DNA from: Escherichia phage UB
Sequence record: MH383160
DNA length: 64,000 nucleotides
Strand: one strand, 5' to 3'
Numbering within the stretch: position 1 is the first letter of the stretch; each line of letters opens with the position of its first letter. Made by a program: the position numbers and the translations under genes. Shown in pieces: positions 1 to 64,000 of the stretch. The notes below the pieces were generated by a model. It did no database searches and was not told the origin of the DNA. It saw nothing but the letters and a program-made list of their open reading frames with translations.

Positions 1-52
1 ATTCATAAATTGTGTATGCCATCATCTATTCTCTCTTATAATATTAGTACTT

Positions 53-646
53 TTAATATTTTAAAACATCAAACTCTTCGCTTACGCTTGTTACATTATC
101 ACTAACAATTTTAAAAATTGATTTGATACGTTCGTGTAGTGGTTTTTTAGATTCGTTCTCAACTTCAATATATGCTTGCATTGCTGCAATTGCATGATAT
201 GTCCCACTACCTACTGCGGTAATTCTTGTTTTAGGTTGTAGTACTGAAAAGTCTTCTTGAACTTCATAGATTGTATGATTGTGGAGAATGATAAATTGTC
301 CACCACCTACATCTTGTGATGCATCTCGTGCACCCCATTCTTCTTTAAACATTTGACGAATAATTGGAATAACTTTAAGAACCAAATATTGTGAAAATGT
401 TTGACTAGCATCTTGTTCAGGTAAATTAAGGTTATAATTTAACAACTGACCCATACGAAATGATGTAGTATAACCCAATGCCATTACTTCTTTAGTTCTA
501 GTTAGTCCATCATCATGTAACTTGATAAATTCTTTCTCGAATACCTTTGGCTCAGTTTGAACAGTTTTTGTAAATCCATTGCTTCCTAACTTATCCCCAG
601 CAATAAAAGAACTTACTCCGTCAGTGTGTGCAATAATACAGGTCAT
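53..646 (-). CDS. HslV-like / proteasome beta-like Ntn-hydrolase peptidase
   Basis: Track ORF 53..715; internal ATG at about 646 gives N-terminus M-TCIIAHTDGVSSFIAGD with Thr directly after Met (N-terminal nucleophile position); ITAVGSGTYHAIAAMQAY resembles the HslV GSGG-x-A-x-AA segment; ATG overlaps stop of upstream ORF (ATGA). Confidence 0.65.
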   Translation of the reverse strand: MTCIIAHTDGVSSFIAGDKLGSNGFTKTVQTEPKVFEKEFIKLHDDGLTRTKEVMALGYTTSFRMGQLLNYNLNLPEQDASQTFSQYLVLKVIPIIRQMFKEEWGARDASQDVGGGQFIILHNHTIYEVQEDFSVLQPKTRITAVGSGTYHAIAAMQAYIEVENESKKPLHERIKSIFKIVSDNVTSVSEEFDVLKY

Positions 647-903
647 AAAATAGCTCCAATTGCAAATAATGTTGTGTATAAGATATAAATTAGTGCTCCT
701 AACAACATTAGGCACACCAAGTATGAAGTTGATAGTACATAATAAATTATTGCTTCGAATTTTGAATTGAACTTCATTGTAGTTGGATCAATAAAGCCAT
801 TACGATAATCTTTGTAAATGAAAACTGTTAGAAAAAGTACTGTAGCATACATTACTACAGTAGCATAAAAAATAATAGATGTCAAGTTTTGGATGTTTGT
901 CAT
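643..903 (-). CDS. small membrane protein, two predicted TM helices
   Basis: 86 aa ORF; two long hydrophobic stretches (SIIFYATVVMYATVLFLTVFIY and LVCLMLLGALIYILYTTLFAIGAIL); stop overlaps start of downstream peptidase gene. Confidence 0.5.
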   Translation of the reverse strand: MTNIQNLTSIIFYATVVMYATVLFLTVFIYKDYRNGFIDPTTMKFNSKFEAIIYYVLSTSYLVCLMLLGALIYILYTTLFAIGAIL

Positions 904-973
904 AGTTATATAATCTCAATATAATTAATAACAAAGGAAGTACATCATAATCATCCTGTTATTTTAATTATTT

Positions 974-1597
974 TTATTGTTTGACTGAACCGTAAAAAAC
1001 CAGTTCTGGTTTTGTTAATATTACAACATCTTCACCACGAGAACGACTAACTCTAAATAGAACTTCTGGTGGGATTCCATTTGCTGCATATAGTGAAAAA
1101 AGGAAACCTACCTTTGTTGCCATTTCTTCGGTAAAAGTTGATAGCTGTCTTACAGACACAAATGAATTATCACCATCAGTAACATTACTTTTAATCGAAA
1201 TGTTATGAAGACCCAGTACTGAGCGATTTGTCATATATCGCTTTTCGGGAGATACACTAAAGAATACCACAGTACATGCTGAGTTGCAATACCTAGAAAC
1301 AATTAAATTTATACCATTGTCTCTAACGAAGTTTGCCATTTTAATCCCAGCATCAAAATCACCACCAGGAGATGTAATTGTGATGGTATCATAGTGTTCT
1401 TTATCATACAACTCTATCATACGCTTGAGTGACCCATCTGTAATATCTGATATGAAATATACATTTCGGGTTTCAGGATTATACTTTATCACATTTTTAC
1501 TTTCAATACCAGCACTAGCTGGAAAATTTATTAACAATAGAAACATTGCTGCTTGTACCACTTCAAGCCATAGTCTTTTCATATAACAAGTCCTCAA
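974..1597 (-). CDS. secreted ClpP-fold serine protease-like protein
   Basis: N-terminal signal-peptide-like segment (LLLINFPASAG); TITITSPGGDFDAG resembles ClpP/SppA SPGG motif; candidate Ser in CNSACT and His in GLHN. Confidence 0.55.
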   Translation of the reverse strand: MRTCYMKRLWLEVVQAAMFLLLINFPASAGIESKNVIKYNPETRNVYFISDITDGSLKRMIELYDKEHYDTITITSPGGDFDAGIKMANFVRDNGINLIVSRYCNSACTVVFFSVSPEKRYMTNRSVLGLHNISIKSNVTDGDNSFVSVRQLSTFTEEMATKVGFLFSLYAANGIPPEVLFRVSRSRGEDVVILTKPELVFYGSVKQ

Positions 1598-1808
1598 TTT
1601 TGTTTAGGAAGATATAAATAATATAGTACTTAAACACTTAAGTCAAACTTTTTCTGTACTTAACTCAAATTTTTAAAAATAAAACTTAAGGTGTACAGTT
1701 TATAACAGATCATATCATACCACTGATGTTTTGTCAACTAGTTCATGGTGCATCTGATGTAAAAAAACAAATATATTTCATACTTATATTTAAAAAAGGA
1801 AATAAAAT

Positions 1809-2186
1809 ATGAAAGCTATCGCAGCACAAGGTAAACTACCATTCAATATCGGCGGGTTTTGTGTAACCGCAGCTAATATAAACGGTGAATTGAAATATAA
1901 CTTGAACATCTTTAATCAACGTTCTAGTTGTGTTTACGATCTCATTGATACTGATTTTAATGTTTATCGTTTTGTAACTATCACTAGTTATGATAAAGAT
2001 AAAATTAGATTAGATGCATCTAAAACAGCATTGGAAATTGCACCAACTCTAGCCAAAAACACTTTTTGTATTAAGATTGACGATAGTGCATTTGCCGAAT
2101 CATTCCAGTTTCATAAAATTAAATTGAGTACTGGTGCGATGAAATATCACCCTTGGGATTTGTATTATTGTAACCTCCCTGGTTAA
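1809..2186 (+). CDS. hypothetical protein (only convincing plus-strand gene)
   Basis: 125 aa ORF in a gap between minus-strand genes; aagga RBS-like sequence about 8 nt upstream of ATG; followed immediately by a strong hairpin terminator. Confidence 0.5.
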   Translation: MKAIAAQGKLPFNIGGFCVTAANINGELKYNLNIFNQRSSCVYDLIDTDFNVYRFVTITSYDKDKIRLDASKTALEIAPTLAKNTFCIKIDDSAFAESFQFHKIKLSTGAMKYHPWDLYYCNLPG

Positions 2187-2218
2187 CAAAAAAGGAGCCA
2201 TACGGCTCCTTTTTTTTA
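2187..2218. terminator. bidirectional rho-independent terminator
   Basis: A-run, GGAGCC-ATAC-GGCTCC perfect 6-bp stem hairpin, then T8 run; sits between convergent genes 1809..2186(+) and 2216..2473(-). Confidence 0.7.
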
Positions 2219-2473
2219 TTCTACAGTATTAAGCTTCTGACAAATCATATCAGCTTCTACTCGGTCTTTATAATAAATGGTAAATCCAAATCTACTTGTT
2301 ACCCTTTTCTCACTACGGTGTATACAGTTTACAATATAGTACTTATTATTTTGTGCAGAAAAACGAACTTCATAATTTCGAAAAGAAGTATTAGGTTCAT
2401 CCATAGCAACTATATATAACATAAAAATAAAAAACACTGTTATTAGAAAAGCAATAATAATTATTACTGTCAT
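2216..2473 (-). CDS. small membrane protein
   Basis: 85 aa ORF with hydrophobic N-terminus (MTVIIIIAFLITVFFIFMLYIVAM). Confidence 0.45.
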   Translation of the reverse strand: MTVIIIIAFLITVFFIFMLYIVAMDEPNTSFRNYEVRFSAQNNKYYIVNCIHRSEKRVTSRFGFTIYYKDRVEADMICQKLNTVE

Positions 2474-2961
2474 TTATCAAGACCCTTATCATAAATGCAA
2501 TTAACAATAATTCCAGCATCTTCCAGTACTTTAATAGCTTCTGGTGGTGTACGAGGATAATTTTTGAGATAAATTACACGTGAAATCCCACTACCTGCAA
2601 TCAACTTAGAACAAGTATAACATGGTTGTAGTGTTGTGTAAAGAGTAGCACCTTGACGTTCAGTAGGAGAACTATAGAGTAAAGCGTTCATTTCAGCATG
2701 GATTTCATGAATATTACTCCACTCATGATGTTCATGCTTTGCTTCATCACTAACCCAGTCTTGAAAACGTCCATCATTGACTAAGTGTTGATTCACATCA
2801 CAACAATTTGGTTGTTTTGATGGAGTACCATTGTATCCAGTACTCAATACTCGATTATTTTTGACAATAACACAACCAACTTTTTGTGAAATACATTTAC
2901 TTTCCTCAGCAACTACTTCTGCTATCTTCAACCAAGTCGTATGTTTCATTATAAGCTCCAA
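2470..2961 (-). CDS. cd: dCMP deaminase (deoxycytidylate deaminase)
   Basis: Cytidine/deoxycytidylate deaminase zinc motifs H-A-E-x-N-A (IHAEMNALL) and P-C-x-x-C (LQPCYTCSK); overall colinear with T4 Cd as recalled (ESKC, STGYNG, CCD segments). Confidence 0.9.
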   Translation of the reverse strand: MELIMKHTTWLKIAEVVAEESKCISQKVGCVIVKNNRVLSTGYNGTPSKQPNCCDVNQHLVNDGRFQDWVSDEAKHEHHEWSNIHEIHAEMNALLYSSPTERQGATLYTTLQPCYTCSKLIAGSGISRVIYLKNYPRTPPEAIKVLEDAGIIVNCIYDKGLDK

Positions 2962-3430
2962 TACTTAACAATGCGTTTTTACACAAATCATGAATTTTCA
3001 TAACTCGAATATAGTTTAACACATCTGTTTCATTAATTTCAAATGGTTTATCTGCATATGTAGACCACGTTTGATTTAATTCAATAACAAATGTAATTTT
3101 ATCTGTATCCATAATATTATCACAAAATCTACGAAAATCTTGCTCTTCATCGGAAAGTCTGAAATTTAAATCATTTTTTAAACCATTAACTGTGAAGCAA
3201 ATACCAGTACTGTAACCGATGCAAATATCTTCAATATCATATAATCCATAAATTAATTTAGAGATAAACGTGCTATATTTGTTTCTATGATAATAGTTTA
3301 ATATTTCTTGTTTAATATTAATTTCAATATCAGTAGTTTTTTGTAATGTAAGTTTAATTAATTCTAATGTCTTGATTATGTTATCTAACCAGATATTAGT
3401 ATCATCTATACTTAGGTGTGTGTATTTCAT
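2906..3430 (-). CDS. hypothetical protein
   Basis: 174 aa minus-strand ORF in tight tandem arrangement; no motif recognised. Confidence 0.5.
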   Translation of the reverse strand: MKYTHLSIDDTNIWLDNIIKTLELIKLTLQKTTDIEINIKQEILNYYHRNKYSTFISKLIYGLYDIEDICIGYSTGICFTVNGLKNDLNFRLSDEEQDFRRFCDNIMDTDKITFVIELNQTWSTYADKPFEINETDVLNYIRVMKIHDLCKNALLSIGAYNETYDLVEDSRSSC

Positions 3431-3956
3431 TATGTCCCTCTAGATTCCAATCATCAACGAGTTTAGAACAAACTTCCATATGATTATAGTACTTTTCATC
3501 CAATACATACGGTTTATTATGATATTGTCGTACATCAGTGAATATATCATAATTTCTATATATGAATGACATATTTTTATGCATTAATTCTATAGTTTTC
3601 CAAATTTTCTCAATATCATATAGAATTGTTTCTAATGACAAACCTGTTAACTTGGAAATTCTTTCAACTTTAAACCCTGATAACATCATAGTACTATTGT
3701 GTTTAGTTAAGTAACTATATCCAATAGAACTATGTATTAACTCAATACTATCAGTATATGTGATTGTTTTTAGAAATGATTTTATATTTCTATTTAACCA
3801 ATACCACTTTTTGTTTTTATTATAACATCTATACCATTTCTTCAATATATCAATTGCTTCAGAATTAATTTTTAAAGCAAATTCATCAATTAAAAACATA
3901 TGATGGTAAAAAATATCACTTTGTTCTTCAGTTAAATTATATTGCTGCATATTCAC
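3402..3956 (-). CDS. hypothetical protein
   Basis: 184 aa minus-strand ORF; no motif recognised. Confidence 0.5.
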   Translation of the reverse strand: MNMQQYNLTEEQSDIFYHHMFLIDEFALKINSEAIDILKKWYRCYNKNKKWYWLNRNIKSFLKTITYTDSIELIHSSIGYSYLTKHNSTMMLSGFKVERISKLTGLSLETILYDIEKIWKTIELMHKNMSFIYRNYDIFTDVRQYHNKPYVLDEKYYNHMEVCSKLVDDWNLEGHNEIHTPKYR

Positions 3957-4074
3957 CTACCCTAGTAACAATGATTCCTTGGGTATTTAGCTCATATAGA
4001 TCAAAATATGATCAATGGAAATTGATATACAGCAATAAAAATAGGAATCCATGATAGGATTCCTTTTCACGATA

Positions 4075-4521
4075 TTATTTTTGATATGGGGTGTACTGAT
4101 ATTTTTCACAATCAGCGACAGTTAGAACACCTTCATCATAACCATATTGAAGTACAAGGTCAAATGCTTTATCAACCATAGCAACAACATCTTTATAACG
4201 AACAATCTTATGAGATTGATTCTCAACTGCTTTCATAATCCCCATTAGCAACCAGCGACCTTCATCGGTGTGTAATTTAGCAAAGCGTGGACGCTTTGTC
4301 GCTGCCATAATATCAGTCCATTCAGCTTTAAAAATGTGTGGACGTTTTGGAATATCATATAGTGTAGTAGGAAAAGTTACATTATTTTTCTTCATTGCTT
4401 CTGCTTGTGCTGCACGATAGCCCTGACGATATAATGGATGCTGCATTTTTAGCTGTTCAGCACTTAGAACTACTTTTGCTTTGTATGCGTCATAACCATC
4501 TTTATATTGTGCATTGGACAT
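4075..4521 (-). CDS. hypothetical protein
   Basis: 148 aa minus-strand ORF; no motif recognised. Confidence 0.5.
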   Translation of the reverse strand: MSNAQYKDGYDAYKAKVVLSAEQLKMQHPLYRQGYRAAQAEAMKKNNVTFPTTLYDIPKRPHIFKAEWTDIMAATKRPRFAKLHTDEGRWLLMGIMKAVENQSHKIVRYKDVVAMVDKAFDLVLQYGYDEGVLTVADCEKYQYTPYQK

Positions 4522-4522
4522 A

Positions 4523-4840
4523 TTATTCTTTTACCTCATCAGTTTGAATGTATTTTTTGTCAGAGAATGTACCGTGTTCTTTACGCACAGCTTCTGCATG
4601 TTGAACCGCATCAACTGGATTAATGTTCTTTTTAATTAGTACTTCCTTCATTAATTCAAGTACAATTGCAAAACCATTCAGCACACGCTCAGATTCATCT
4701 ACATTTTTTAATTCAAGTGCTACTGCACTAATTTGATCGAACGCAACATTAATAAAATCGGAATCTTCTAATACATTTGCTACTTCCGTATTATTACGTA
4801 CTAGTACTTTCATATAATCTCCACAAAGATGATGCCCCAT
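4523..4840 (-). CDS. hypothetical protein
   Basis: 105 aa ORF immediately upstream of and abutting 4075..4521. Confidence 0.5.
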   Translation of the reverse strand: MGHHLCGDYMKVLVRNNTEVANVLEDSDFINVAFDQISAVALELKNVDESERVLNGFAIVLELMKEVLIKKNINPVDAVQHAEAVRKEHGTFSDKKYIQTDEVKE

Positions 4841-4861
4841 ATTGAGGCATCAAAATCTATC

Positions 4862-5557
4862 TTACACCCACTCTTCCACGCCACCGCGACGCTTAACTAA
4901 GTACTTACCTTCTTCATTGCGTGGCCCAAGAATAATACCATCGATGAAACCATGTTCACCATATTCAAGAGCTTCTTCTGCATTTAACCACAAATCACGG
5001 TCTGCATCTTTAAGTAGTTGTTCGTGTGTTACACCAACTGCTTCTGCAATTTCTTTAGTCAATAGAGTGTTTAGGGCATCAGAATGTTTAAGTGAAATCT
5101 TCTGGTCAGTAATTAGACCTTGTGTACCAGAACTTACTTGGTGACACATGAAATAAGAACGCTTACCACCTAAACGGAAACCTTTAGTGCCAATTACAGA
5201 TTGTGTATAGCAACCCATTGATGCTGCATAGCCCATTACTACAGTGCGAATTGGAGAAATACAAGACTTAGCAACATCTGCAATACCCAAACCTGCGTGT
5301 ACTGAACCACCCGGTGAACTAATGTAGAATGTAATAGGGGAATCACCTTGTGAGTCTAACCATACCAATTGTTGTTTGATGATATGTGCCATTTGATCAT
5401 TGAAATCAGTATCAAGGAAAATGATACGGTCTTGCATCATACGAGATGCTAGATCATATGTACGTTCTGAACCATTAACTTTCTCAACTACGTAAGGAAT
5501 AGAAATGTTACGTACTTCGCCATTAGCATAACCACCAAACATGAATTGTTCAACCAT
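4862..5557 (-). CDS. clpP: ATP-dependent Clp protease proteolytic subunit (ClpP) homologue
   Basis: Canonical ClpP segments: YISSPGGSV, MGYAASMG (catalytic Ser), MCHQ (His), DADRD (Asp); colinear with bacterial ClpP as recalled. Confidence 0.85.
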   Translation of the reverse strand: MVEQFMFGGYANGEVRNISIPYVVEKVNGSERTYDLASRMMQDRIIFLDTDFNDQMAHIIKQQLVWLDSQGDSPITFYISSPGGSVHAGLGIADVAKSCISPIRTVVMGYAASMGCYTQSVIGTKGFRLGGKRSYFMCHQVSSGTQGLITDQKISLKHSDALNTLLTKEIAEAVGVTHEQLLKDADRDLWLNAEEALEYGEHGFIDGIILGPRNEEGKYLVKRRGGVEEWV

Positions 5558-5621
5558 TATTTATTTCCTCTATTATTTCGTTGTTGTGAGTATTATATCA
5601 CTAAGATTTAAAATGTCCAAA

Positions 5622-6062
5622 CTATTTTACTGGAATATTTGAAAAGAAATCAGTCATCCAATACGCCGTCTCTTTGTTGAATAATACTGGATCAAACTTA
5701 AGTAACTCAACATGACTTGTATCATACACGCTTGTATCGGTAATGTCAAACAAAGTTTTAGTACTGAATAGTGGATTACTCACTAGAAAGTAGTAATCAG
5801 CAGTAGTGCTAATGTCATCATAAAACACACCGTCATACCATCCATCATCATATACATAAACAGAATCGTCATGAAGATAGTAAACTTCTATATGTAAACT
5901 CAAGTTCTTCATGGTTTCAATCATTTTTGCCGTATGAGGATTTAACTTATTGACATTTTCAAAAACATAAGAGTGTTTTTTATTCATATCAACAAATGAA
6001 AATATTCGTACTGAACGTATATTCATATTACTCCAAATAAACAAGTGAATTAATGAAATCAT
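5622..6062 (-). CDS. hypothetical protein
   Basis: 146 aa minus-strand ORF. Confidence 0.45.
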   Translation of the reverse strand: MISLIHLFIWSNMNIRSVRIFSFVDMNKKHSYVFENVNKLNPHTAKMIETMKNLSLHIEVYYLHDDSVYVYDDGWYDGVFYDDISTTADYYFLVSNPLFSTKTLFDITDTSVYDTSHVELLKFDPVLFNKETAYWMTDFFSNIPVK

Positions 6063-14727: not shown

Positions 14728-14972
14728 TATAATAAACCTCTCACATAAAACATTGATGAAAATAGATAATCATCAGTACTTGTGTTTAGATGTTTAGAAA
14801 AGCTATATTTTTTATTTTTATTTTCGTATAAAGACAATCTATAGAACATTTCTATATTTTCTAAGTATTCTTTTTGTAATAACATCTGTGTTTTTACATT
14901 CATTATAATATTCCTTAAAAGAAAAAGGGACCAACATATGATCCCTTTTGTATTAGAAATTTCCTTCTGCAA
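14727..14972 (-). CDS. hypothetical small protein (start probably at an internal Met)
   Basis: 81 aa track ORF; its 5' part overlaps pseT 3' end and a weak hairpin, so the real start is likely downstream. Confidence 0.3.
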   Translation of the reverse strand: MQKEISNTKGIICWSLFLLRNIIMNVKTQMLLQKEYLENIEMFYRLSLYENKNKKYSFSKHLNTSTDDYLFSSMFYVRGLL

Positions 14973-15885
14973 CTTGAAAAACTTTCAAGCCAAGTAGCTT
15001 ACGCCACATGAATACGACTTGTGCTCGGTCATCATATACCTTTTTAACATCGTAATGATCAACCACATTTTTCATGTACAGGTCGAATTTTACAACATCA
15101 TCAGGACGTTTATCATCGATATCTCGCATAAACAATGCATCGTAAGGAACACCCCAATTCTTAAGCCACTGTTCGGTATCAGCACGACACCCTTCAGTAC
15201 GCCCACTCATGACGATAATCTTGCGTTTATGAAAAACTGCTTCAGCGATAATAGACAAAATAACTTCTTCATCAGGTGTATCCTGAAGAACAGTACTTTC
15301 ATCGTAAGGATTACGACCCCATTTATGAGCAAGAGTACCGTCAATATCAACGATAACAGCAGCTTCGCGTGAATTACCATAGTAACCAATGTGTAATGCT
15401 TTACTATAATAGTACGTATCTGCCATTTTGTCAATGATATCATCTGGTACTGAACGCCCACGCTGGAGGTTATATTTCTTACAAAGTTTTACGAACTCTT
15501 TAATCTTAAAGAATTCATGAACATCTGCACCACGGTCTTCATTAGGTACAAAATCATCATAGAAGTTCTTTTCTTTGTAATCATAACCATTATCTGTAGC
15601 CCATACTTTCCAGAGATCACGGAAATGTGGTTTAAGGTTCGTATCGGATACGATGATGTTCCAACCATTCTCTGCTGCTGAATTTGCTGCACTGAACTGT
15701 AAATTATCTACGTACTGCTCATTAGCATCGTTGAATTTGTAAGCATCATGTGACCCAGCCATAGATTCACGAATATCATCACGGTTGATGTTGATAGTCT
15801 TGGATTTGGCTTTTTTAATCTCTTGCACTGCCCATGTAGTTTTACCACACCCAGGCAATCCAACTGTTAATGTGATAGTTGGCAT
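14953..15885 (-). CDS. pseT: polynucleotide 5'-kinase / 3'-phosphatase
   Basis: Walker A GLPGCGKTT near N-terminus; HAD-like phosphatase motif VIVDIDGTLA; C-terminal DDVVK, DDRAQVVFMWR and QVAEGNF colinear with T4 Pnk as recalled. Confidence 0.9.
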   Translation of the reverse strand: MPTITLTVGLPGCGKTTWAVQEIKKAKSKTININRDDIRESMAGSHDAYKFNDANEQYVDNLQFSAANSAAENGWNIIVSDTNLKPHFRDLWKVWATDNGYDYKEKNFYDDFVPNEDRGADVHEFFKIKEFVKLCKKYNLQRGRSVPDDIIDKMADTYYYSKALHIGYYGNSREAAVIVDIDGTLAHKWGRNPYDESTVLQDTPDEEVILSIIAEAVFHKRKIIVMSGRTEGCRADTEQWLKNWGVPYDALFMRDIDDKRPDDVVKFDLYMKNVVDHYDVKKVYDDRAQVVFMWRKLLGLKVFQVAEGNF

Positions 15886-15888
15886 CCT

Positions 15889-54944: not shown

Positions 54945-55227
54945 AATATTTCCTTTGCCATATCATGGGCTTAAAATCAATAACAGCTTTCTGTATCTTT
55001 TTTAATAATAAGACATCATAACCACCCGTGTCAATCACTAATTGCTGTTGGAACAATTCTTCATCGGATAATGTATTGAAATCTACAAAATAATCTGTAA
55101 CTATCGAATCATTTAAATGTGCCATGTACCAACCTGAACTTCTTGAATAAATCAAATTCCACCCATCGTCATCATCTTCTAATTCAACATAAATCATATC
55201 TGGGGTATACATCATTTTATACTTCAT
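54916..55227 (-). CDS. family A protein
   Basis: 103 aa; DEELFQQQLVI. Confidence 0.55.
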   Translation of the reverse strand: MKYKMMYTPDMIYVELEDDDDGWNLIYSRSSGWYMAHLNDSIVTDYFVDFNTLSDEELFQQQLVIDTGGYDVLLLKKIQKAVIDFKPMIWQRKYYDLEVPYQQ

Positions 55228-55765
55228 AACTATATCCTTGCATTAATAAATCATAAACTACATGGACTAAATTTAATTGAATATAAAATTTTAAACCTTT
55301 AATTAATGAATTCAAATGCATTGTACTGAATAACATTAGATACATCATCTCATGCGGTTTTGTGATTAATGATTTTTGAAATACTTCAGCTTCATCATAA
55401 GGGTCTATGAACTGAAATTTGTCTTCATCATAATTTGTATTGGAATGCTGATATATAAAATAATCATCATTGGTATTGTACCACAAATATCCTTCGAATC
55501 CTGTACTAACATCTTTGGTCAATGGGGATGCTGATACTGGATTTGAACTGATTAATGCACCTACATCAACAATCCCCGTTGTATCATATTCGATTTCAAC
55601 ATCAATATCAATGTATTTCCTTGCGATATCTGCGTTTATGGACAAATATAAACTACCACCTGTCCTCTGACTCAGGATTCCATCTATCTGCGATATAGGA
55701 TGGTTGTTATTGAGGATAAGCATTATTGTACTTATCTTGTGTGCTAATAACTCTATCTCATTCAT
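55217..55765 (-). CDS. family A protein
   Basis: 182 aa; EAEVFQKSLIT. Confidence 0.55.
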   Translation of the reverse strand: MNEIELLAHKISTIMLILNNNHPISQIDGILSQRTGGSLYLSINADIARKYIDIDVEIEYDTTGIVDVGALISSNPVSASPLTKDVSTGFEGYLWYNTNDDYFIYQHSNTNYDEDKFQFIDPYDEAEVFQKSLITKPHEMMYLMLFSTMHLNSLIKGLKFYIQLNLVHVVYDLLMQGYSYEV

Positions 55766-55965
55766 AATTTACCTATCGATGGATACCTAGGATTTGTAGG
55801 ATGTAAAATCCTGTCCTGTACTGAAAGGTGCTCAAATGTAATTAAACTCAAATAATAATCGTAATTATCAATACCACCCTTCAAATGTATATTGTAATAC
55901 ATCTTAATACTATCTAATAATGAATCCTGTAATGCATTTAATGTTATCGTATTAATCTTTTGCAT
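55762..55965 (-). CDS. hypothetical small protein
   Basis: 67 aa ORF. Confidence 0.35.
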   Translation of the reverse strand: MQKINTITLNALQDSLLDSIKMYYNIHLKGGIDNYDYYLSLITFEHLSVQDRILHPTNPRYPSIGKL

Positions 55966-56171
55966 TAATGTTCTTCTCTTAAAAATCGTTTGATAGCATA
56001 ATCTAAATAAAATTCATAACACATGCTATCTCTGTTCTTTATCCATATTTTGTAATCGGATTTTATATTACTCAACAAATAATTTGTATTAATTGTGTAA
56101 TAATCCAAACGACCTAATCGTGCCATTTGATAGGATACTCCGTTCCATTTATTGTATAAGATATAATCCAT
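55965..56171 (-). CDS. hypothetical small protein
   Basis: 68 aa ORF. Confidence 0.35.
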   Translation of the reverse strand: MDYILYNKWNGVSYQMARLGRLDYYTINTNYLLSNIKSDYKIWIKNRDSMCYEFYLDYAIKRFLREEH

Positions 56172-56524
56172 CCGTAATGAATAGGACTATTCTTTTCTCC
56201 TTTAGGAATAAAATATAAAGATGTACTGGGGTTATAACTGAATAAATCGTTGTTACCAAATGTAAAATGCGATAACTCAATTTTCCTTGTACCTGTACTT
56301 GGACGAAGAGCATTCTTAACACCGAAGACTGTACCTTGATATTTCTCGGAAAATTCAAACAATACATCTGTAATTAAATCACGAAACTCCGCATGTATGG
56401 TTTCAAAAAAATCTATATTACACGATGTTTTAATATCCTTGAACTCATTATAAAAAGCATGTCTTGTATTCAAAAGAAATATTACTTTTTTAAGATCCTG
56501 AACTATTTCTGGATTCATATTCAT
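56114..56524 (-). CDS. hypothetical protein
   Basis: 136 aa ORF. Confidence 0.45.
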   Translation of the reverse strand: MNMNPEIVQDLKKVIFLLNTRHAFYNEFKDIKTSCNIDFFETIHAEFRDLITDVLFEFSEKYQGTVFGVKNALRPSTGTRKIELSHFTFGNNDLFSYNPSTSLYFIPKGEKNSPIHYGWIISYTINGTEYPIKWHD

Positions 56525-56756
56525 TTATCTCATTCTGTAACTTAAGCATCAAAATTTGCATATTAATTTTTTGTAAAAGGTGCTTGATAAATTTCTGTGC
56601 CATTTCTTCTTGTTCTTTTGTACCAAGATAAAATAACAGATTAAATTCTGATAATCGCAAAGAAAAATCTTCATCACCACCCTTTAAACAAAAATCCCTG
56701 TACTTTGTAGCGTACAAATATTGGTTTACCTTTTTATAATACCCTGTGTTTTGCAT
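56490..56756 (-). CDS. family B small protein (outlier copy)
   Basis: 88 aa; FYLGTKEQEEMAQKFIKHL. Confidence 0.45.
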   Translation of the reverse strand: MQNTGYYKKVNQYLYATKYRDFCLKGGDEDFSLRLSEFNLLFYLGTKEQEEMAQKFIKHLLQKINMQILMLKLQNEINEYESRNSSGS

Positions 56757-56944
56757 ACTATCTCCGTTCGCAACGAATTTATATAATAATGAACAAATTG
56801 TTCTTGTGAACGTGTTCCAAGAAAAATAAACATATCAAACTCTGTTGTTTTTAAATTCAATGCATCTTTTGTAAAATTCCTGTTGAATTCCCTGTACTTT
56901 TGGGTCTTCCATTCTTGATTAATTGTCTTGTATATCGATTTCAA
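56726..56944 (-). CDS. family B small protein (outlier copy)
   Basis: 72 aa; IFLGTRSQEQFVHYYINSL. Confidence 0.45.
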   Translation of the reverse strand: MKSIYKTINQEWKTQKYREFNRNFTKDALNLKTTEFDMFIFLGTRSQEQFVHYYINSLRTEIVCKTQGIIKR

Positions 56945-57239
56945 TGATTCTCCCTGACATACCTTGTATTAGCTTATCATACATATCGAGCATCACTTTT
57001 TGAATATTAATTAGTACTGGCATCGTGCAAATATCAATGTCGTATACTAAGCTGTACTGGAATAATTCATCTTCCTGCATTTGTACTAAATTAGGTAAAA
57101 GATAATTGTCTGCCTCTTCATCCTGGTACTTGAAATGCATAACACCATCCTTTTTGTACAAAAGAATGTCAATATCACCTAACTCTTCTGCATAACCAAA
57201 AATACATATACTCGATGTTTTTGCTATATTAAATTTCAT
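56919..57239 (-). CDS. family A protein
   Basis: 106 aa; EDELFQYSLVY. Confidence 0.55.
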   Translation of the reverse strand: MKFNIAKTSSICIFGYAEELGDIDILLYKKDGVMHFKYQDEEADNYLLPNLVQMQEDELFQYSLVYDIDICTMPVLINIQKVMLDMYDKLIQGMSGRIIEIDIQDN

Positions 57240-58045
57240 GATTTATATTGTTCCTTAAAAACACCACAATGATAATTTTTATTGTATTGTGTAATACTAT
57301 AATCACACGGCATTGTCCCGCACGAAGCTCTGTGTTTTAAACGTTCCAATACCTTATCGTAATCTTTACTGAAAATGCCATTTTCATTGGGCGTAGCAAT
57401 CATTAATGCTTGCTCATATAAATCTTTTGTTCTTGTTGAACCATGCGAATGTTTGTTAAAATAAAATACATATTCAACTTCCCAATTACTTCTTAAATAG
57501 GATATTCCGTAATTGATAATCATATAATAATGTAAATCCTTGTAATAATTGAATGTCTTATCTGTATTAATCAAAATATATGAAGAACTATCATTGTCCT
57601 TAATAACAAATAAACGACCAATCTTATTTTCTTTATCTTTAACTAATTGTCTAATTTCATCACCTTCTTCAAATTTACGATGCACTTCAATTACAGATTT
57701 AGCAATCCCAGTCTGTACTAAAGATTCATATGTTGCGTACATAAAATCACTTACATGACCTAAACCAACATCTTCTTTTCTTGGTGTCTCTGTTGTATTG
57801 ACAAACATATTCAATAACTTTTGAATTGAAAAATCAGTACTGCAATCTTTATTAATTTTAATTTTTTCTCGAATCTCTTCCTTTAATGCATTAATATATT
57901 GCTCTTGTGCTGCTTCCTGATAATTTGTACCAAGATATAAACTCAAGGCAACTGAACCTTTGTAAGATGCTGATTTCTTTAAATCACCAGAACTAAATTT
58001 TTTCATAATCAAATTGGTTGCTTCAGATTCTGTTAAAAATTTCAT
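57236..58045 (-). CDS. family B module fused to a larger C-terminal domain
   Basis: 269 aa; N-terminal about 75 aa carries LSLYLGTNYQEAAQEQYINALKEEI; followed by about 190 aa unrelated region. Confidence 0.55.
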   Translation of the reverse strand: MKFLTESEATNLIMKKFSSGDLKKSASYKGSVALSLYLGTNYQEAAQEQYINALKEEIREKIKINKDCSTDFSIQKLLNMFVNTTETPRKEDVGLGHVSDFMYATYESLVQTGIAKSVIEVHRKFEEGDEIRQLVKDKENKIGRLFVIKDNDSSSYILINTDKTFNYYKDLHYYMIINYGISYLRSNWEVEYVFYFNKHSHGSTRTKDLYEQALMIATPNENGIFSKDYDKVLERLKHRASCGTMPCDYSITQYNKNYHCGVFKEQYKS

Positions 58046-58153
58046 ATCATTGTACCTTATCTTAAAATTGAATAGGTAAACATGTTAACACTATTCAAAT
58101 GGAGTGTCAACATTGATCTTCATTCTGTGAATATTAAATTTCATATTATTCTC

Positions 58154-58486
58154 TTATATATTGAATTCACATACGTGTTGAACAAAATTCTTTGGAAGAT
58201 GACAATGTGCAATCATCTGCTGTTGCACTTTCTTCATATCTTCTAATGTAAAACCTAAAGAATCATCGTGTACTAACATGTACTGAAACTCTTCTTCTTC
58301 AGAGATAGAACATAAATTCGGTACTGAAATTGTTTTTGTTTTTCTTGCACCTAATTTCCAATGAAAAGAATTATTGCATTTTCTGTACTCAAATATCTTC
58401 AACCCAGCACCTCTATTAAAATCAGCTACTACAATGTAACATGAATTCTTACGTACAATACAATTAAATTTACGCATTATCTCCAC
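58154..58486 (-). CDS. family A protein
   Basis: 110 aa; EEEEFQYMLVH. Confidence 0.55.
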   Translation of the reverse strand: MEIMRKFNCIVRKNSCYIVVADFNRGAGLKIFEYRKCNNSFHWKLGARKTKTISVPNLCSISEEEEFQYMLVHDDSLGFTLEDMKKVQQQMIAHCHLPKNFVQHVCEFNI

Positions 58487-58722
58487 CTCTCTCCGTCATC
58501 GCAAGAGTACTGGTACGTTGTCGTTAGGGTAGGGACCATGTTGGTAATGGGCATATTATTAACAATAACCGTAACAGGCATAAGAATCGTCTCTACTCTA
58601 CTCTGTCCTGTCCTTGTGCAATTCATCTTTTGCATTTCATCTGAATCCATGAAATACAATACAAATGGTGCAATCCCAAGAACAATACACAAGACGATAA
58701 GGAAATTTAAAAAATTTAACAT
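58477..58722 (-). CDS. small membrane protein
   Basis: 81 aa with N-terminal hydrophobic helix (FLNFLIVLCIVLGIAPFVLYF). Confidence 0.4.
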   Translation of the reverse strand: MLNFLNFLIVLCIVLGIAPFVLYFMDSDEMQKMNCTRTGQSRVETILMPVTVIVNNMPITNMVPTLTTTYQYSCDDGERWR

Positions 58723-58781
58723 AATTTTTACCCTATGATTAACGTTAGTGTACTATATCAGTAATGAAAAGTACTGTCAAG

Positions 58782-59177
58782 CTAGTACTGCACTGTTCTA
58801 ATGAAAGTACCTTTACTCATGGATTTAAGCTTATGAACCTCTTCCTGCATACCCTTAATTAACCCTAAAGGTATAGGTAAATCATGTACTAAGCTGTACT
58901 GAAAGTATTCTTCTTCAGATAAAGTACTAACATCTGGGACTCCAATTTTAGTTAGATAATCTTGATGTGTTGACCAATAAATTATATCTTCAGTACTATT
59001 GTACTCCCCATATACTGAACAATATTGATGAATATCTTTCCTGTACCCTTGAGCAATAAAGAACTTATCTACTGCATTACCAGCATTAATAGAATTCACT
59101 TCTATTGTCACAGTACTTGAGCTTGTATAACTCTTAATATTATCAGTACTCAATAATGTGTTCTTCATAATCACCAT
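58782..59177 (-). CDS. family A protein
   Basis: 131 aa; LSEEEYFQYSLVH. Confidence 0.55.
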   Translation of the reverse strand: MVIMKNTLLSTDNIKSYTSSSTVTIEVNSINAGNAVDKFFIAQGYRKDIHQYCSVYGEYNSTEDIIYWSTHQDYLTKIGVPDVSTLSEEEYFQYSLVHDLPIPLGLIKGMQEEVHKLKSMSKGTFIRTVQY

Positions 59178-59487
59178 TAGGCTCCTGTTTAGATTCTTTC
59201 ATTAGTACTATCATCTTATGTACTAATGGCATAGGAAACTCTAAATCCCATACTAATGATTCCTGAAAGTATTCTTCTTCAGATAAAGTACTTAAATCTT
59301 TAATATCAACGTGCTTGTATATTTTATTTTCGTAATTAACAAATGATATATATAAATCACTAACATAAGAATCATAGGTAATTGTGAATGGCTTACCCTT
59401 GTAATCCATTACATCTCTACATAGACTACTTTTGATATATGTATGTTCAAATGATTTATATACCTTGAGTTGTATATTAGTTTTCAT
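59143..59487 (-). CDS. family A protein
   Basis: 114 aa; LSEEEYFQESLVW. Confidence 0.55.
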   Translation of the reverse strand: MKTNIQLKVYKSFEHTYIKSSLCRDVMDYKGKPFTITYDSYVSDLYISFVNYENKIYKHVDIKDLSTLSEEEYFQESLVWDLEFPMPLVHKMIVLMKESKQEPNGDYEEHIIEY

Positions 59488-59752
59488 ATTTCTCTTTATT
59501 AGCTTGTTTTGTTTTATGGTGAATTAAATCTATTAATGTAATCAAGTACAACGTCAAATAGTACTCTTGTTGATCTGTACCTAATGATACAAAGAACTTG
59601 TGCTCATAGATTAAAACCTGTTTCTCTTCAAATGGACATTTAATCCTCTGTATAGGCTTAAGTAAATGATAGTACTTATTAAATCTATGATACATTTCTA
59701 GTTCTGTCAGTACTTTCATATTAAACACGTACTCCATTAGCAGTAGCATCAC
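59477..59752 (-). CDS. family B small protein
   Basis: 91 aa; VSLGTDQQEYYL. Confidence 0.5.
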   Translation of the reverse strand: MMLLLMEYVFNMKVLTELEMYHRFNKYYHLLKPIQRIKCPFEEKQVLIYEHKFFVSLGTDQQEYYLTLYLITLIDLIHHKTKQANKEKYEN

Positions 59753-59942
59753 GTAAAGCTGTCAAATACTTCTGTACTGCTTGCTCTTGTTTATTTGTAC
59801 CTAAAAGTATATACATCCATAATTCACTGTAATGTACATCTTCTGTATAAGGGTTGTTGTAACTTTTTGATAATATAGCATCAAATTCAGATGCATGAAC
59901 CCTTGTGAACTTAAGAATATCTTGTTGTGTTATGATTCTCAT
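59721..59942 (-). CDS. family B small protein
   Basis: 73 aa; ILLGTNKQEQAV. Confidence 0.5.
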   Translation of the reverse strand: MRIITQQDILKFTRVHASEFDAILSKSYNNPYTEDVHYSELWMYILLGTNKQEQAVQKYLTALRDATANGVRV

Positions 59943-60154
59943 ATCTTTTCCTGTACAATCTGTATAAGAATACCTATGTGTGAATTAACAGTTCTCTCTT
60001 GATGCTGTGTTCCTAAGAGTGTCAGTACTATCATATCTGAACGCAAAAGATTTTTTTCAAGTTCACTTATATCAGTTCTTGAATCAAGTGCCATATATTT
60101 GTGATTATTCTTCCTGAATAGTGCCAAGTACTCTTGATTTGATATTTCCTTCAT
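59939..60154 (-). CDS. family B small protein
   Basis: 71 aa; LTLLGTQHQERTV. Confidence 0.5.
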   Translation of the reverse strand: MKEISNQEYLALFRKNNHKYMALDSRTDISELEKNLLRSDMIVLTLLGTQHQERTVNSHIGILIQIVQEKI

Positions 60155-60372
60155 AGTTTATTCCTGATGCCATTTAAAAGTGCTCTAATATGCTCATTGA
60201 CAAATCGCTCTTGGGAATCTGTTCCTAGAGTGAGTAGCAATCTTAAATCTGAACTTTTGATGTGATATTCTAAATCATTATTTGATTCTTGCATCAGTTT
60301 CTTAAAGGATGAGAAGTTTGCAGCCATTAGTTCAATGTATTCTGCTGTTCCTAGTGGTTTGTGTGTTGACAT
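60151..60372 (-). CDS. family B small protein
   Basis: 73 aa; LLTLGTDSQERFV. Confidence 0.5.
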   Translation of the reverse strand: MSTHKPLGTAEYIELMAANFSSFKKLMQESNNDLEYHIKSSDLRLLLTLGTDSQERFVNEHIRALLNGIRNKL

Positions 60373-60584
60373 TTGAGTTGTATTACCCTTTTGAGTGTAT
60401 TAATGTAATTATACACATTGGCTTCTTGATAGTTTGTTCCTAGAGTAGCTTGAACATAGATTTCATTTAACTTAATAATTTTATCAGTATCTGGTAGTTT
60501 TGATGTGTTAATGGCAAATAACTTCAAAAACAGTCCATTTAAGATTGTTAGGTATTCTTCGTCGGTAATGATTCGCATTTGCAT
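60351..60584 (-). CDS. family B small protein
   Basis: 77 aa; ATLGTNYQEANV. Confidence 0.5.
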   Translation of the reverse strand: MQMRIITDEEYLTILNGLFLKLFAINTSKLPDTDKIIKLNEIYVQATLGTNYQEANVYNYINTLKRVIQLKCQHTNH

Positions 60585-60796
60585 TGGATAAACCTTTTTA
60601 GTTCTTTGATGTAATCATTAATATTGCATTCTTGGTAGTTAGTTCCCAGTGTAGCTTGAACATAGATTTCACTTACTAGAATACTTATTTCATCATCTGG
60701 TAATTTCATGCTTTTTGTTATAAACAACTTTAGAATTAAACTACTTAATAGTTGGTTGTATTCTGTGGGTGAAATGATTTTCATTTTCATTTGCAT
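60548..60796 (-). CDS. family B small protein
   Basis: 82 aa; ATLGTNYQECNI. Confidence 0.5.
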   Translation of the reverse strand: MQMKMKIISPTEYNQLLSSLILKLFITKSMKLPDDEISILVSEIYVQATLGTNYQECNINDYIKELKRFIQCKCESLPTKNT

Positions 60797-61002
60797 TTTC
60801 TCAGTACTGATTCTTTAAGTTCATTGATGTAGTCCTCAACGAATTGTTCTTGTAGGTTTGTTCCGAGATATAACAGTACTCTTAAATCTGCTCTAAGTAC
60901 TTCTTTGTCATCTTCATCTATATCAGACAGTGTTATGTTTAAGAATTTACTTGAATTCTCTACAAGTAATATTACTTCTTCACCTTCTCTTAAAATTTTC
61001 AT
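60787..61002 (-). CDS. family B small protein
   Basis: 71 aa; LYLGTNLQEQFV. Confidence 0.5.
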   Translation of the reverse strand: MKILREGEEVILLVENSSKFLNITLSDIDEDDKEVLRADLRVLLYLGTNLQEQFVEDYINELKESVLRKCK

Positions 61003-61208
61003 AATCTTAGTGCTTTCCTCGACAGTAGGTACAGGTAACGTTCAGTGCATTGTTCTTGATAGTTTGTTCCTAATAAATGAACTAAATGTTGTTCAGCTAT
61101 AGAAAGCTGCTTGTCTTCATAACAAGCGTATCGTTGTTTCCTATGGTATTCTTTATTGATAACATCAAGGATGATAACACCGTATTCGTCATCTGTCAAG
61201 TGTTTCAT
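60999..61208 (-). CDS. family B small protein
   Basis: 69 aa; HLLGTNYQEQCT. Confidence 0.5.
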   Translation of the reverse strand: MKHLTDDEYGVIILDVINKEYHRKQRYACYEDKQLSIAEQHLVHLLGTNYQEQCTERYLYLLSRKALRL

Positions 61209-61446
61209 GCTTTTTTCTTTTTCTTATATGTTTAGTTAAAAGGTATATTAGTTTTCTGATGTATTCTTCCTGATAGTTTGTTCCTAAGAGTGCAAGAAGT
61301 TTTGCTTCAACTAAAGCTAATTGACGTTCTTCGAATGTGTGTTCCAGTATGTACTTGGGGTTTGATTTTTTAGCGTAAGCACTATTAGTCTTCATTACAA
61401 TCTTATGATATTCATTAGCTGTTAGGATTTTTAAATACTTGATCAT
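61189..61446 (-). CDS. family B small protein
   Basis: 85 aa; ALLGTNYQEEYI. Confidence 0.5.
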   Translation of the reverse strand: MIKYLKILTANEYHKIVMKTNSAYAKKSNPKYILEHTFEERQLALVEAKLLALLGTNYQEEYIRKLIYLLTKHIRKRKKHETLDR

Positions 61447-61666
61447 GTATCTTTTCCTTTATAGAGAATTTAAGATATCGAAGCATACTTTCAATGTAAT
61501 ACTCTTGTCTGTCAGTGCCAAGAAAGTACATGAGTTGAATGTATAAAACTTCTGCACTCCTTTCCGCTGGAGACTTGTTTGTGTCGTTTGGAAGTTGATT
61601 TGTATGTTTTCTTGATTTAATTAGTCGTTCTTTTAACTCATCGTCTGTTAAGTATTTCATTTTCAT
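61415..61666 (-). CDS. family B small protein (PAERSAEVL subtype)
   Basis: 83 aa; PAERSAEVLYIQLMYFLGTDRQEYYI. Confidence 0.5.
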   Translation of the reverse strand: MKMKYLTDDELKERLIKSRKHTNQLPNDTNKSPAERSAEVLYIQLMYFLGTDRQEYYIESMLRYLKFSIKEKIHDQVFKNPNS

Positions 61667-61892
61667 TTACTTTTTCCTTAATAGTAATTTTAAGATATCT
61701 AATCATACGTGCAACATATTCCTCTTGTCTATCAGTTCCCAGAAGATATGGTAGTGATTGGAATAATACTTCTGCACTCCTTTCTGCTGGGGTTTGGTTT
61801 AGGTCAATTGGACGTTTATTGGTATATCTCTTGGCACGAACTAATCTCTCGACGTATTCATTATAGGTTAAGTATATCATTTCATTTTGCAT
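61638..61892 (-). CDS. family B small protein (PAERSAEVL subtype)
   Basis: 84 aa; PAERSAEVLFQSLPYLLGTDRQEEYV. Confidence 0.5.
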   Translation of the reverse strand: MQNEMIYLTYNEYVERLVRAKRYTNKRPIDLNQTPAERSAEVLFQSLPYLLGTDRQEEYVARMIRYLKITIKEKVNENEILNRR

Positions 61893-62118
61893 TTACTTTT
61901 TCCTTAATAGTAATTTTGAGATATTTAATTATACGTTCAATGTGATACTCTTGCCTATCAGTTCCAAGAAGGTATGGTAATCTTTGGAATAAAACTTCCG
62001 CACTCCTTTCTGCTGGGGTTTGATTTGTGTTGTGAGGAAGTTTATTTGTAAGTCTTTTGGATTTATCTAGTCTTTCTGTTAACTCATCATGTGTTAAGTA
62101 TATCATTTCATTTTGCAT
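61882..62118 (-). CDS. family B small protein (PAERSAEVL subtype)
   Basis: 78 aa; PAERSAEVLFQRLPYLLGTDRQEYHI; N-terminus MQNEMIYLT identical to neighbour. Confidence 0.5.
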   Translation of the reverse strand: MQNEMIYLTHDELTERLDKSKRLTNKLPHNTNQTPAERSAEVLFQRLPYLLGTDRQEYHIERIIKYLKITIKEKVNAK

Positions 62119-62345
62119 TTAATGTTCCTTACGTAAATTGTCTGGATTAAACAATCAATCCAAGTTTGAATATATTGGTTTTGATACTGTGTGCCTAAGA
62201 GACTCTGCATTTTAAACTCTGCTTCAAGTTCATATCTCTTTTCTATAGAAAAGCTCAAATGACCATATTCTTTATCGTATCTTCTCAGTGCTTCCCCAAT
62301 TCTATTAAATCTTTCTGCTAATCTGATGTTATTCACAATATTCAT
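62103..62345 (-). CDS. family B small protein
   Basis: 80 aa; SLLGTQYQNQYI. Confidence 0.5.
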   Translation of the reverse strand: MNIVNNIRLAERFNRIGEALRRYDKEYGHLSFSIEKRYELEAEFKMQSLLGTQYQNQYIQTWIDCLIQTIYVRNIKCKMK

Positions 62346-62632
62346 CGATCAGTATACCTCAGTGGTTGGGTCATTTGATAAAAGTACAGCTTACCTTTGA
62401 TTTCCAGTAGTAACTCCGCGATTAAGCGATTTACTTCTGTATCTTGATAGTTTGTTCCTAAGAATACACCCATCTTTAACTCACGCATCATAATCATTTT
62501 CTTACTGTGTTGGATTTCTGGGTTGTGATAAATTGTATTACGTTTGTGCGTAATTTTTGTCATACGCTCGGTATATTCATCTTTACTTAAATTGATCATT
62601 TGCATGTTAATTACCCTTACATTTATTTTCAA
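62342..62632 (-). CDS. family B small protein
   Basis: 96 aa; VFLGTNYQDTEV. Confidence 0.5.
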   Translation of the reverse strand: MKINVRVINMQMINLSKDEYTERMTKITHKRNTIYHNPEIQHSKKMIMMRELKMGVFLGTNYQDTEVNRLIAELLLEIKGKLYFYQMTQPLRYTDR

Positions 62633-63965: not shown

Positions 63966-64000
63966 CTAGTTTATCCTGTATAACATTCGTTAATTGTTCG

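Follow-up and report, generated by a model that had tools for sequence, protein, structure and literature searches.

Genes for ClpP and ClpA have been noted in jumbo phages, where an anti-host role was proposed for them, and a translocase or assembly role was suggested for jumbo-phage ClpA and ClpX (Iyer et al., PMC7824862). Phage-borne group I homologues of the proteasome (PPH, AAH and CPH) have been described as well (Fuchs, Alva and Lupas 2021, PMC8665760), and the Salmonella jumbo phage pSal-SNUABM-04 reportedly carries two HslV-like copies and no HslU (PMC7823757). Here we analysed a stretch of 64,000 nucleotides from Escherichia phage UB (sequence record MH383160), referred to below as the window, which begins with an HslV-like gene (53..646), a gene for a predicted exported ClpP-fold protein (974..1582) and a ClpP gene (4862..5557). 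An earlier reading made from the letters of the window without database searches (the sequence-only reading) had proposed three peptidase open reading frames (ORFs) within 5.5 kb, and all of them were found where it had placed them, on the minus strand. Public genome records already annotate the three genes and assign them to superfamilies; the subject is known at the level of annotation, with jumbo-phage ClpP and ClpA and phage proteasome homologues noted earlier, and our analysis does not overturn current understanding. We found no paper on the function of ClpP or ClpA in the RaK2-like phage group.

We consider it likely that the window belongs to the early/metabolic genes of an Asteriusvirus jumbo coliphage and that the locus encodes three separate non-structural peptidases that act in different places: a ClpP that works with a phage-encoded ClpA, an exported enzyme with a Ser/His centre, and an HslV-like enzyme with an active N-terminal threonine (Thr1). 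ClpP would be self-compartmentalising and would most likely dock the phage ClpA to form a ClpAP that unfolds and degrades cytoplasmic proteins, its targets being perhaps host proteins or surplus phage proteins. The product of 974..1582 would leave the cytoplasm by a Sec-type signal and, once in the periplasm or at the membrane, cleave its substrates without ATP by means of Ser101 and His126. The product of 53..646, probably co-transcribed with the exported gene and a membrane-protein gene, would be an active Thr1 peptidase of the HslV/BPH branch of proteasome homologues, from a family found in many phages without HslU.

The host of these genes was placed by megablast. Over positions 1..6000 of the window, 21 phage genomes cover nearly all of the stretch, the best matches being Escherichia phage BAU.Micro_ELP-22 (99.4% identity), phAPEC6 (99.2%), PBECO4 (98.7%) and 121Q (92.5%), and these relatives are Asteriusvirus jumbo myoviruses of ~350 kb. 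On this similarity we assign the window phage to Asteriusvirus, in the RaK2/121Q/PBECO4 group. The sequence-only reading had named T4 for comparison; the phage is not T4 but a jumbo phage of the Asteriusvirus type. Partners of the peptidases were sought in the complete genome OR844650.1, 98.8% identical, in which 234125..299455 is the collinear counterpart of the window.

The ClpP gene (4862..5557, minus strand, 231 residues) was identified by Pfam, NCBIfam and PDB matches and by residue mapping. The Pfam CLP_protease model (PF00574) matched the protein at 3.8e-41 and 141.4 bits (cut-off 20.2) over profile positions 2-179 of 182, and solved ClpPs gave more than 100 PDB matches (1e-26 to 5e-36) that span the full length, the N-terminal axial loop included. 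The protein carries SPGG, AASMG, CHQ and DRD, and its triad S113/H139/D188, equivalent to S97/H122/D171 of Escherichia coli, is kept in four phage lineages. All four motifs, the triad and the profile match bear out the description of this protein as a canonical ClpP. Its axial loop, IPYVVEKVNGSERTYDLASR, aligns with the N-terminal loop of E. coli ClpP and is preceded by ~19 residues. E. coli ClpP has a 14-residue propeptide at that place, and the ~19 residues are likely a propeptide that would be processed.

The phage protein shares with bacterial ClpP (MEROPS S14) the fold, a full-length alignment, the Ser-His-Asp triad and the N-terminal axial loop (IPYVVE...GER.YD..SR), but differs from it in several ways. 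Identity to E. coli ClpP is ~35% (global alignment), and the cellular ClpP models of NCBIfam score 151-155 bits, under their equivalog or subfamily cut-offs (TIGR00493, 151 bits against 308.6; PRK00277, 155 against 249), so that the level of a bacterial ClpP equivalog is not reached. These scores lead us to view the phage ClpP as a divergent clade and not as an orthologue of the host ClpP. An extra C-terminal tail of ~20 residues, RNEEGKYLVKRRGGVEEWV, is conserved in Asteriusvirus, K64-1 and CBB and missing from the E. coli and PA5oct-like ClpPs. At the 12 positions of E. coli ClpP that form the pocket for IGF/IGL docking, Y62 and M92 alone are identical in the phage protein; a number of the remaining positions have changed conservatively, while Y60T, F82S and L114G are non-conservative.

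The sequence-only reading had seen no AAA+ unfoldase in the window, and this was upheld: tblastn of the 64 kb with E. coli ClpX, ClpA, HslU, Lon and ClpS gave no match, and the sole ORF with a Walker A motif (14956..15888) encodes a polynucleotide kinase. A candidate AAA+ partner for ClpP was found outside the window in the near-identical genome. In OR844650.1, E. coli ClpA matches 157437..155728 with an E value of 8e-141 (local tblastn), within the gene of a ClpA homologue of 762 residues (155206..157491, minus strand; identified by tblastn, NCBIfam and alignment) that lies ~77 kb outside the window and ~80 kb from ClpP. The protein is 42-44% identical end to end to E. coli ClpA (758 residues), depending on the aligner. 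It has two Walker A motifs, an N-domain and no gap of the size of an M-domain; its best NCBIfam model is TIGR02639 (ClpA), which matches in a single stretch at 754.7 bits, while the ClpB models match in two separate parts. Where E. coli ClpA has its IGL loop for docking ClpP, the phage protein reads SIGM (tripeptide IGM), and across four phage lineages the docking tripeptide is IGM, IGV, LGM or IGF, with the ClpP pocket positions varying in parallel. The two AAA+ modules, the N-domain and a docking tripeptide are thus all shared with bacterial ClpA. The phage system differs from bacterial ClpAP in having IGM and not IGL, in that its clpA and clpP genes are not adjacent, and in encoding neither ClpS nor ClpX; no HslU, ClpX, Lon or ClpS homologue was detected by tblastn in OR844650.1, where weak HslU matches fall inside the ClpA gene.

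A search of a phage collection found ClpA and ClpP together in Asteriusvirus, Alcyoneusvirus (RaK2, K64-1), Mimasvirus CBB and Yersinia phage fHe-Yen9, and also in Erwinia Eneladusvirus, Salmonella 7t3/Munch and PA5oct-like phages. This co-occurrence across the RaK2-like group makes a phage-encoded ClpAP protease, in which the two proteins would pair physically, the likelier reading. Together, the IGM loop, the changed ClpP pocket and the C-terminal tail suggest that the interface has drifted in both partners and that the pair is possibly co-adapted and insulated from the host.

The sequence-only reading had offered another possibility, that the phage relies on host unfoldases: ClpP would capture host ClpX or ClpA, the HslV-like protein would capture HslU, and host proteolysis would be redirected. 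Such capture would fit a window without an AAA+ unfoldase and a genome without an HslU or ClpX homologue, the good conservation of the ClpP axial loop with respect to E. coli ClpP, the presence of HslV-like genes in many phages whose hosts have HslU, and the intact catalytic residues, which show that the proteins are not decoys. For ClpP it is undercut by the full-length ClpA with its IGM docking loop, co-inherited with ClpP across deep divergence in the RaK2-like group: a phage that encodes its own ClpA has no need to borrow a host unfoldase for ClpP. Several ClpP pocket residues are, in addition, unlike those of E. coli ClpP. With solved HslVs the HslV-like protein shares no more than 16-19% identity (Foldseek), it scores 19.9 bits against an HslV cut-off of 137, and Lys28 of E. 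coli HslV corresponds to Val28, a weak point. We regard host capture as unlikely overall. Dependence on a host unfoldase is possible for the HslV-like protein alone, because no HslU homologue is present in the genome.

The second ClpP-fold protein, a predicted exported serine peptidase of 202 residues (974..1582, minus strand), was recognised from family invariants, an AlphaFold2 (AF2) model, structural fold matches, hydropathy and phrog_26024. The sequence-only reading had given the gene as 974..1597. Its ClpP fold stands and its N-terminus is signal-like, but TTG 1597 is probably not the start; the start is likely the ATG at 1582, which is served by a TGAGGA Shine-Dalgarno sequence and is also the one used in GenBank. 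Residues 1-24 are signal-peptide-like by hydropathy and motif heuristics: the N-terminus reads MKRLWLEVVQAAMFLLLINFPASA and then G, with a basic start (MKR), a hydrophobic core (KD15 maximum 2.15) and an A-x-A motif (PASA ahead of the G). A hydrophobic N-terminal segment is present in nearly all family members, some of them lipobox-like, and the AF2 model has a low-confidence linker after helix 2-19. The apparent signal peptide of the sequence-only reading agrees with the hydropathy, the A-x-A motif and the family-wide segments, and on these heuristics the product would be exported.

On the exported protein the Pfam CLP_protease model scored 17.9 bits, under its cut-off of 20.2, and no curated Pfam or NCBIfam family reached threshold for any member of the family. 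The close family comprises 47 phage records, all of them from RaK2-like jumbo phages. When its profile was run in a full HMMER scan, 1884 relatives were returned at E<=1e-3, for the most part proteins of 230-290 residues from bacteria or metagenomes that have the N-terminal two-thirds in common. The genes around a relative from the bacterium Massilia were uninformative, and a literature search for COG3904 gave nothing usable.

Structure and conservation point to a putative active site. In 27 diverse members, S71, G73 and G74 (the SPGG motif), C99, S101, C103 and H126 are invariant, and the 25 residues from Ser101 to His126 equal the spacing in ClpP (97 to 122). In the AF2 model (predicted local distance difference test, pLDDT, 92), Ser101 lies between strand 92-100 and helix 102-109, that is, at a nucleophile elbow, and the long helix 144-167 is the counterpart of the ClpP 'handle'; structural fold matches show that the protein has the ClpP fold. 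SppA and NfeD use Ser-Lys catalytic dyads. An NfeD-like Ser-Lys mechanism was considered for the exported enzyme and rejected, as no Lys is conserved across the family. With neither a conserved Lys nor a conserved acidic third residue in the alignment, we propose a Ser-His centre. The family differs from SppA (S49) and from NfeD/STOPP 1510-N in that its Ser would pair with an invariant His at the ClpP spacing instead of with Lys, and in having a C-x-S-x-C signature of its own. Apart from the invariant pair on either side of Ser101 the phage protein has no cysteines, and in an oxidising compartment this pair would probably form a disulfide.

This exported C-x-S-x-C family is the least described and most original element of the locus and the best candidate for follow-up. 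A wider reading, which we put forward tentatively and hold to be rather less probable than its alternatives taken together, joins an undescribed, exported, ATPase-independent ClpP-like family to a private, insulated ClpA-ClpP pair. If it were true, the Ser-His centre would be locked by the disulfide, and the handle helix would allow a double-ring chamber in the periplasm; RaK2-like phages might then remodel the host envelope early, one way being to destroy receptors or envelope-based defences, while the IGM loop, the altered pocket and the C-terminal tail would insulate the phage pair from the host Clp system.

The third peptidase is a predicted proteasome-beta/HslV-like threonine peptidase of the N-terminal nucleophile (Ntn) type (53..646, minus strand, 197 residues), identified by phrog_1040, alignment, AF2, Foldseek and hhalign. 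Its ATG at 646 shares bases with the stop codon of the ORF before it (ATGA), GGAG stands 7 nt upstream, and all 39 aligned family members, from unrelated contexts, begin with M-T-C; for these reasons the start is secure. The same three observations ruled out the upstream GTG at 715 as a start. The sequence-only reading had described a Thr directly after the initiator Met and a GSG..A..AA block, both of which are real, and had held that an upstream start would speak against an N-terminal Thr; M-T is found in 39 of 39 homologues and no such start is used. Removal of Met before Thr is an established specificity of methionine aminopeptidase. After this removal the invariant residues T2, D18, K34, G146 and G148 correspond to Thr1/Asp17/Lys33/GSG. 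At least 90% of the sequences have G58, and a TTSFR motif is nearly invariant; by its position, G58 is possibly the equivalent of the oxyanion-hole Gly47. Catalytic residues are in place in all three peptidase-fold proteins, those of the exported one being a putative Ser and His with no conserved Asp.

The phrog_1040 profile matched the HslV-like protein at 4e-24, and a Pfam scan of the protein found no match. Single-sequence PDB searches with the HslV-like protein and with the exported protein gave chance matches only, so that profiles and predicted structures were needed for both. The AF2 model of the HslV-like protein (pLDDT 92.8) shows a beta-sandwich with four helices (H1-H4), the proteasome-beta fold. 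Foldseek matched it to HslV at 1.5e-10 and to BPH with template modelling (TM) scores of 0.73-0.78, at 16-19% identity to solved HslVs and BPH. The family profile matched HslV in the PDB at 1e-7, with proteasome beta and BPH weaker, and hhalign against E. coli HslV gave 94.4% probability with the Asp, Lys and GSG catalytic columns aligned. An HslV orthologue was excluded by the NCBIfam models (NF003964, 19.9 bits against 137; TIGR03692, 18.9 against 157.75). In the gap-free register from Thr1 to Lys33, Lys28 of E. coli HslV falls on Val28 of the phage protein; Lys28 presumably contacts the HslU tail, a role for which a literature search yielded no source.

With HslV (ClpQ), BPH, AAH, CPH and PPH the protein shares the proteasome-beta fold, the Thr1/Asp17/Lys33 numbering, the GSG loop, a Gly ahead of the TTSF motif and the lack of a propeptide beyond the initiator Met. 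It is phage-borne, as PPH and AAH are (PMC8665760), and differs from HslV and the group I homologues in that the Asteriusvirus clade adds a beta-hairpin of ~19 residues (36-57). Membership of the PPH subgroup was excluded by length (197 residues against ~140) and by helix H2, which PPH lacks. The family counts 196 phage records, including many T5-like Epseptimavirus and Aeromonas, Vibrio, Geobacillus and Moorella phages, and its genes are typically placed in early or nucleotide-metabolism regions. At the three loci inspected (T5-like, Aeromonas and Vibrio), the 2.5-3.5 kb around the gene carry no annotated AAA+ gene. By the tblastn search of the near-identical genome, which found no HslU, we class the HslV-like enzyme as an orphan. 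Aeromonas phage 2L372X has two adjacent genes annotated as 'peptidase HslV family', one at 114931..115893 and the other across the start of the record, and two HslV-like copies per phage hint at hetero-oligomers in some phages.

The phage group appears, then, to bring a complete ClpAP-type machine and two partnerless peptidases. This makes the group tractable for studying what large phages gain from proteolysis of their own, be it host takeover, quality control during long infections or counter-defence, and the exported ClpP-fold and phage HslV-like families have clear candidate catalytic residues for mutation.

Several points weigh against the reading of three separate non-structural peptidases. 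First, the genome in which partners were sought belongs to a relative and is not the window's own. Second, the ClpA gene stands alone on the opposite strand amid giant virion-structural genes, and an assembly-chaperone role fits this position equally well. Third, the diverged docking residues could reflect a weakened interaction rather than co-adapted binding. Fourth, hhalign pairs His126 of the exported protein with ClpP His122 but leaves the Ser motif 4 residues out of register, and the exported family alignment holds no conserved acidic third triad residue. Fifth, Glu7 and Gln10 are invariant inside the hydrophobic stretch of the exported protein, which may therefore be an uncleaved membrane anchor instead of a cleaved signal peptide. 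Sixth, promoter-like sites show no enrichment in the region (39 found against 39.2 expected). Seventh, mass spectrometry of CBB virions detected one ClpP peptide (4.5% coverage). Lastly, we found no experimental study of any of the three peptidases in the literature.

The position of ClpA underlies a second alternative, in which the phage ClpA serves mainly in assembly, as a chaperone or translocase of the giant virion proteins whose genes adjoin its own, and ClpP works with host unfoldases or alone. The gene is embedded among virion-structural genes, its neighbour being a ~10-kb gene for a virion protein, in keeping with the translocase or assembly role already suggested for jumbo-phage ClpA and ClpX (PMC7824862). 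A ClpA that had parted from ClpP would be hard to square with the IG[LMVF]-type docking tripeptide retained in four divergent lineages, or with the presence of ClpA alongside ClpP in every lineage inspected. We think it improbable that assembly is its main role, and the two roles are compatible and not mutually exclusive.

The CBB peptide bears on a third alternative, taken from PHROG-based annotation, that the ClpP at 4862..5557 is a head-maturation (prohead) protease. The profile phrog_94, 'head maturation protease', matches it at 3.6e-44, several GenBank records carry that label, and ClpP-fold prohead proteases, which belong to the same superfamily as both ClpP-fold proteins of the window, are common in other phages (NCBIfam NF045542). 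Cellular ClpP models give ClpP 155 bits, compared with 51 on the head-maturation model Clp_rel_HeadMat (NF045542, cut-off 120), on which the exported protein reaches 20.6 bits; both are under the cut-off. ClpP also retains the axial N-loop for coupling to an unfoldase and co-occurs with ClpA. Unlike head-maturation proteases, both ClpP-fold genes lie far from the capsid genes, ClpP being in the early/metabolic block, with over 100 genes between it and those of the head (gp353c against gp225-230 in phAPEC6). In phAPEC6, a gp21-type 'prohead core scaffold and protease', gp227c, is encoded beside the major head protein gp225c (PMC7247149). The counterparts of the three window peptidases in that phage are gp345c, gp346c and gp353c, and all three are missing from the list of proteins found by virion mass spectrometry (PMC7247149), in which gp227c was seen. 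Proteases of the gp21 type are also present in Sharanji and PA5oct. With a T4 gp21-type protease encoded beside the capsid gene, we judge it highly improbable that ClpP matures the head, and the 'head maturation protease' label, which for both ClpP-fold genes stems from NF045542 and phrog_94, is probably wrong.

The label is spreading in GenBank. It stands on ClpP and even on the exported gene in records such as those of fEgEco12, vB_Ec-M-J, WPEC5 and CRJP21. In the CRJP21 record the product names look displaced, the exported protease bearing the name 'nudix hydrolase' and ClpA that of 'virion protein and lysozyme murein'. Displaced and head-maturation labels are likely annotation errors that propagate.

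The arrangement of the genes raises a further alternative, that the three form one co-regulated proteolysis module, or 'degradation island', on a common pathway. They lie on the same strand within 5.5 kb, and by a naive random placement, calculated post hoc, the chance of finding three of ~4 phage peptidase genes this close is of the order of 1e-3. Escherichia jumbo phages have the same arrangement, and in the more distant ones JNE01, A4 and fEgEco12 the exported and HslV-like genes are still neighbours at protein identities of 43-67%. Klebsiella phage K64-1 keeps the linkage and order of ClpP, dCMP deaminase and exported protease. The HslV-like gene is absent from that locus and occurs alone in T5-like phages, and these genomes are in any case largely collinear. 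Between ClpP and the exported gene, 3.3 kb downstream of it, are ~8 unrelated ORFs that include the dCMP deaminase and an opposite-strand virion-protein gene, and ClpP has promoter-like and terminator-like signals of its own. The predicted compartments, periplasm and cytoplasm, differ as well. A single module is thus a doubtful reading, to which we give little weight; the order in K64-1 and the adjacency in Escherichia jumbo phages point to conserved synteny and not to a single functional module.

Within the locus, the exported gene is followed directly on its strand by an 86-residue ORF and then by the HslV-like gene. The overlap of the 86-residue ORF with the HslV-like gene and the shared strand make it probable that the exported, membrane and HslV-like genes form one operon. 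The ORF (643..903, minus strand) encodes a hydrophobic protein with 2-3 predicted transmembrane segments and had no match in Pfam, PHROG or PADLOC. It was considered as a conserved partner of the HslV-like protein and rejected, being dissimilar to the membrane protein in the same position in S133 (T5-like); no conserved neighbour of the HslV-like gene was seen in the Aeromonas or Vibrio phages inspected. PADLOC matched none of the three peptidases to a defence family, and its ClpA matches were generic AAA+ ones. Upstream of the exported gene are tandem sigma-70-like sites on the minus strand, TTGACA-17-TATGAT at 1737..1709 and TTGACT-17-TATTAT at 1646..1618, identified by consensus only.

ClpP appears to be transcribed as a separate unit. 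Upstream of it is a sigma-70-like promoter consensus, TGGACA-16-TATAAT with an extended TG (5592..5619, minus strand; consensus match only), and an AGAGGA Shine-Dalgarno sequence stands downstream of this site, ahead of the gene. On the same strand a terminator-like hairpin with a 10-bp stem and a T-rich tail, found by sequence scan, starts 10 nt past the ClpP stop (4830..4852). Terminator-like sites in the region number 6 against 1.9 expected. The only plus-strand gene in this minus-strand block (1809..2186) encodes the counterpart of phAPEC6 gp347, a 14-kDa virion protein with 75% coverage in virion mass spectrometry (PMC7247149). Directly after it lies a strong hairpin of 12 bp flanked by T tracts on either side (2188..2215), which resembles a bidirectional terminator.

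Just upstream of the counterpart of window position 1 in a relative, genes for a Sir2-like deacetylase, a Nudix hydrolase and a PhoH-like protein flank the peptidase block, and the equivalent neighbourhood of K64-1 holds NAMPT, cytidyltransferase and Sir2. These flanking genes place the peptidases within an early region of nicotinamide adenine dinucleotide (NAD) and nucleotide metabolism.

The window gave no match in tRNA and Rfam scans. From ~16000 to 58000 it holds, by the annotation of a 99%-identical relative, more than 100 successive small minus-strand ORFs without known function, many of them alike in size (~70-85 and ~150-195 residues), and this run could be a set of paralogous early-gene arrays. 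From ~55000 to 64000 the identity to the closest relative searched falls from ~97-98% to 85-90% and the matching pieces are rearranged. At 60-64 kb the base skew shifts as well, with the AT skew at about -0.22 and the GC skew near zero or positive. The drop in identity and the shift in skew suggest a variable region and a strand switch at the far end of the window.

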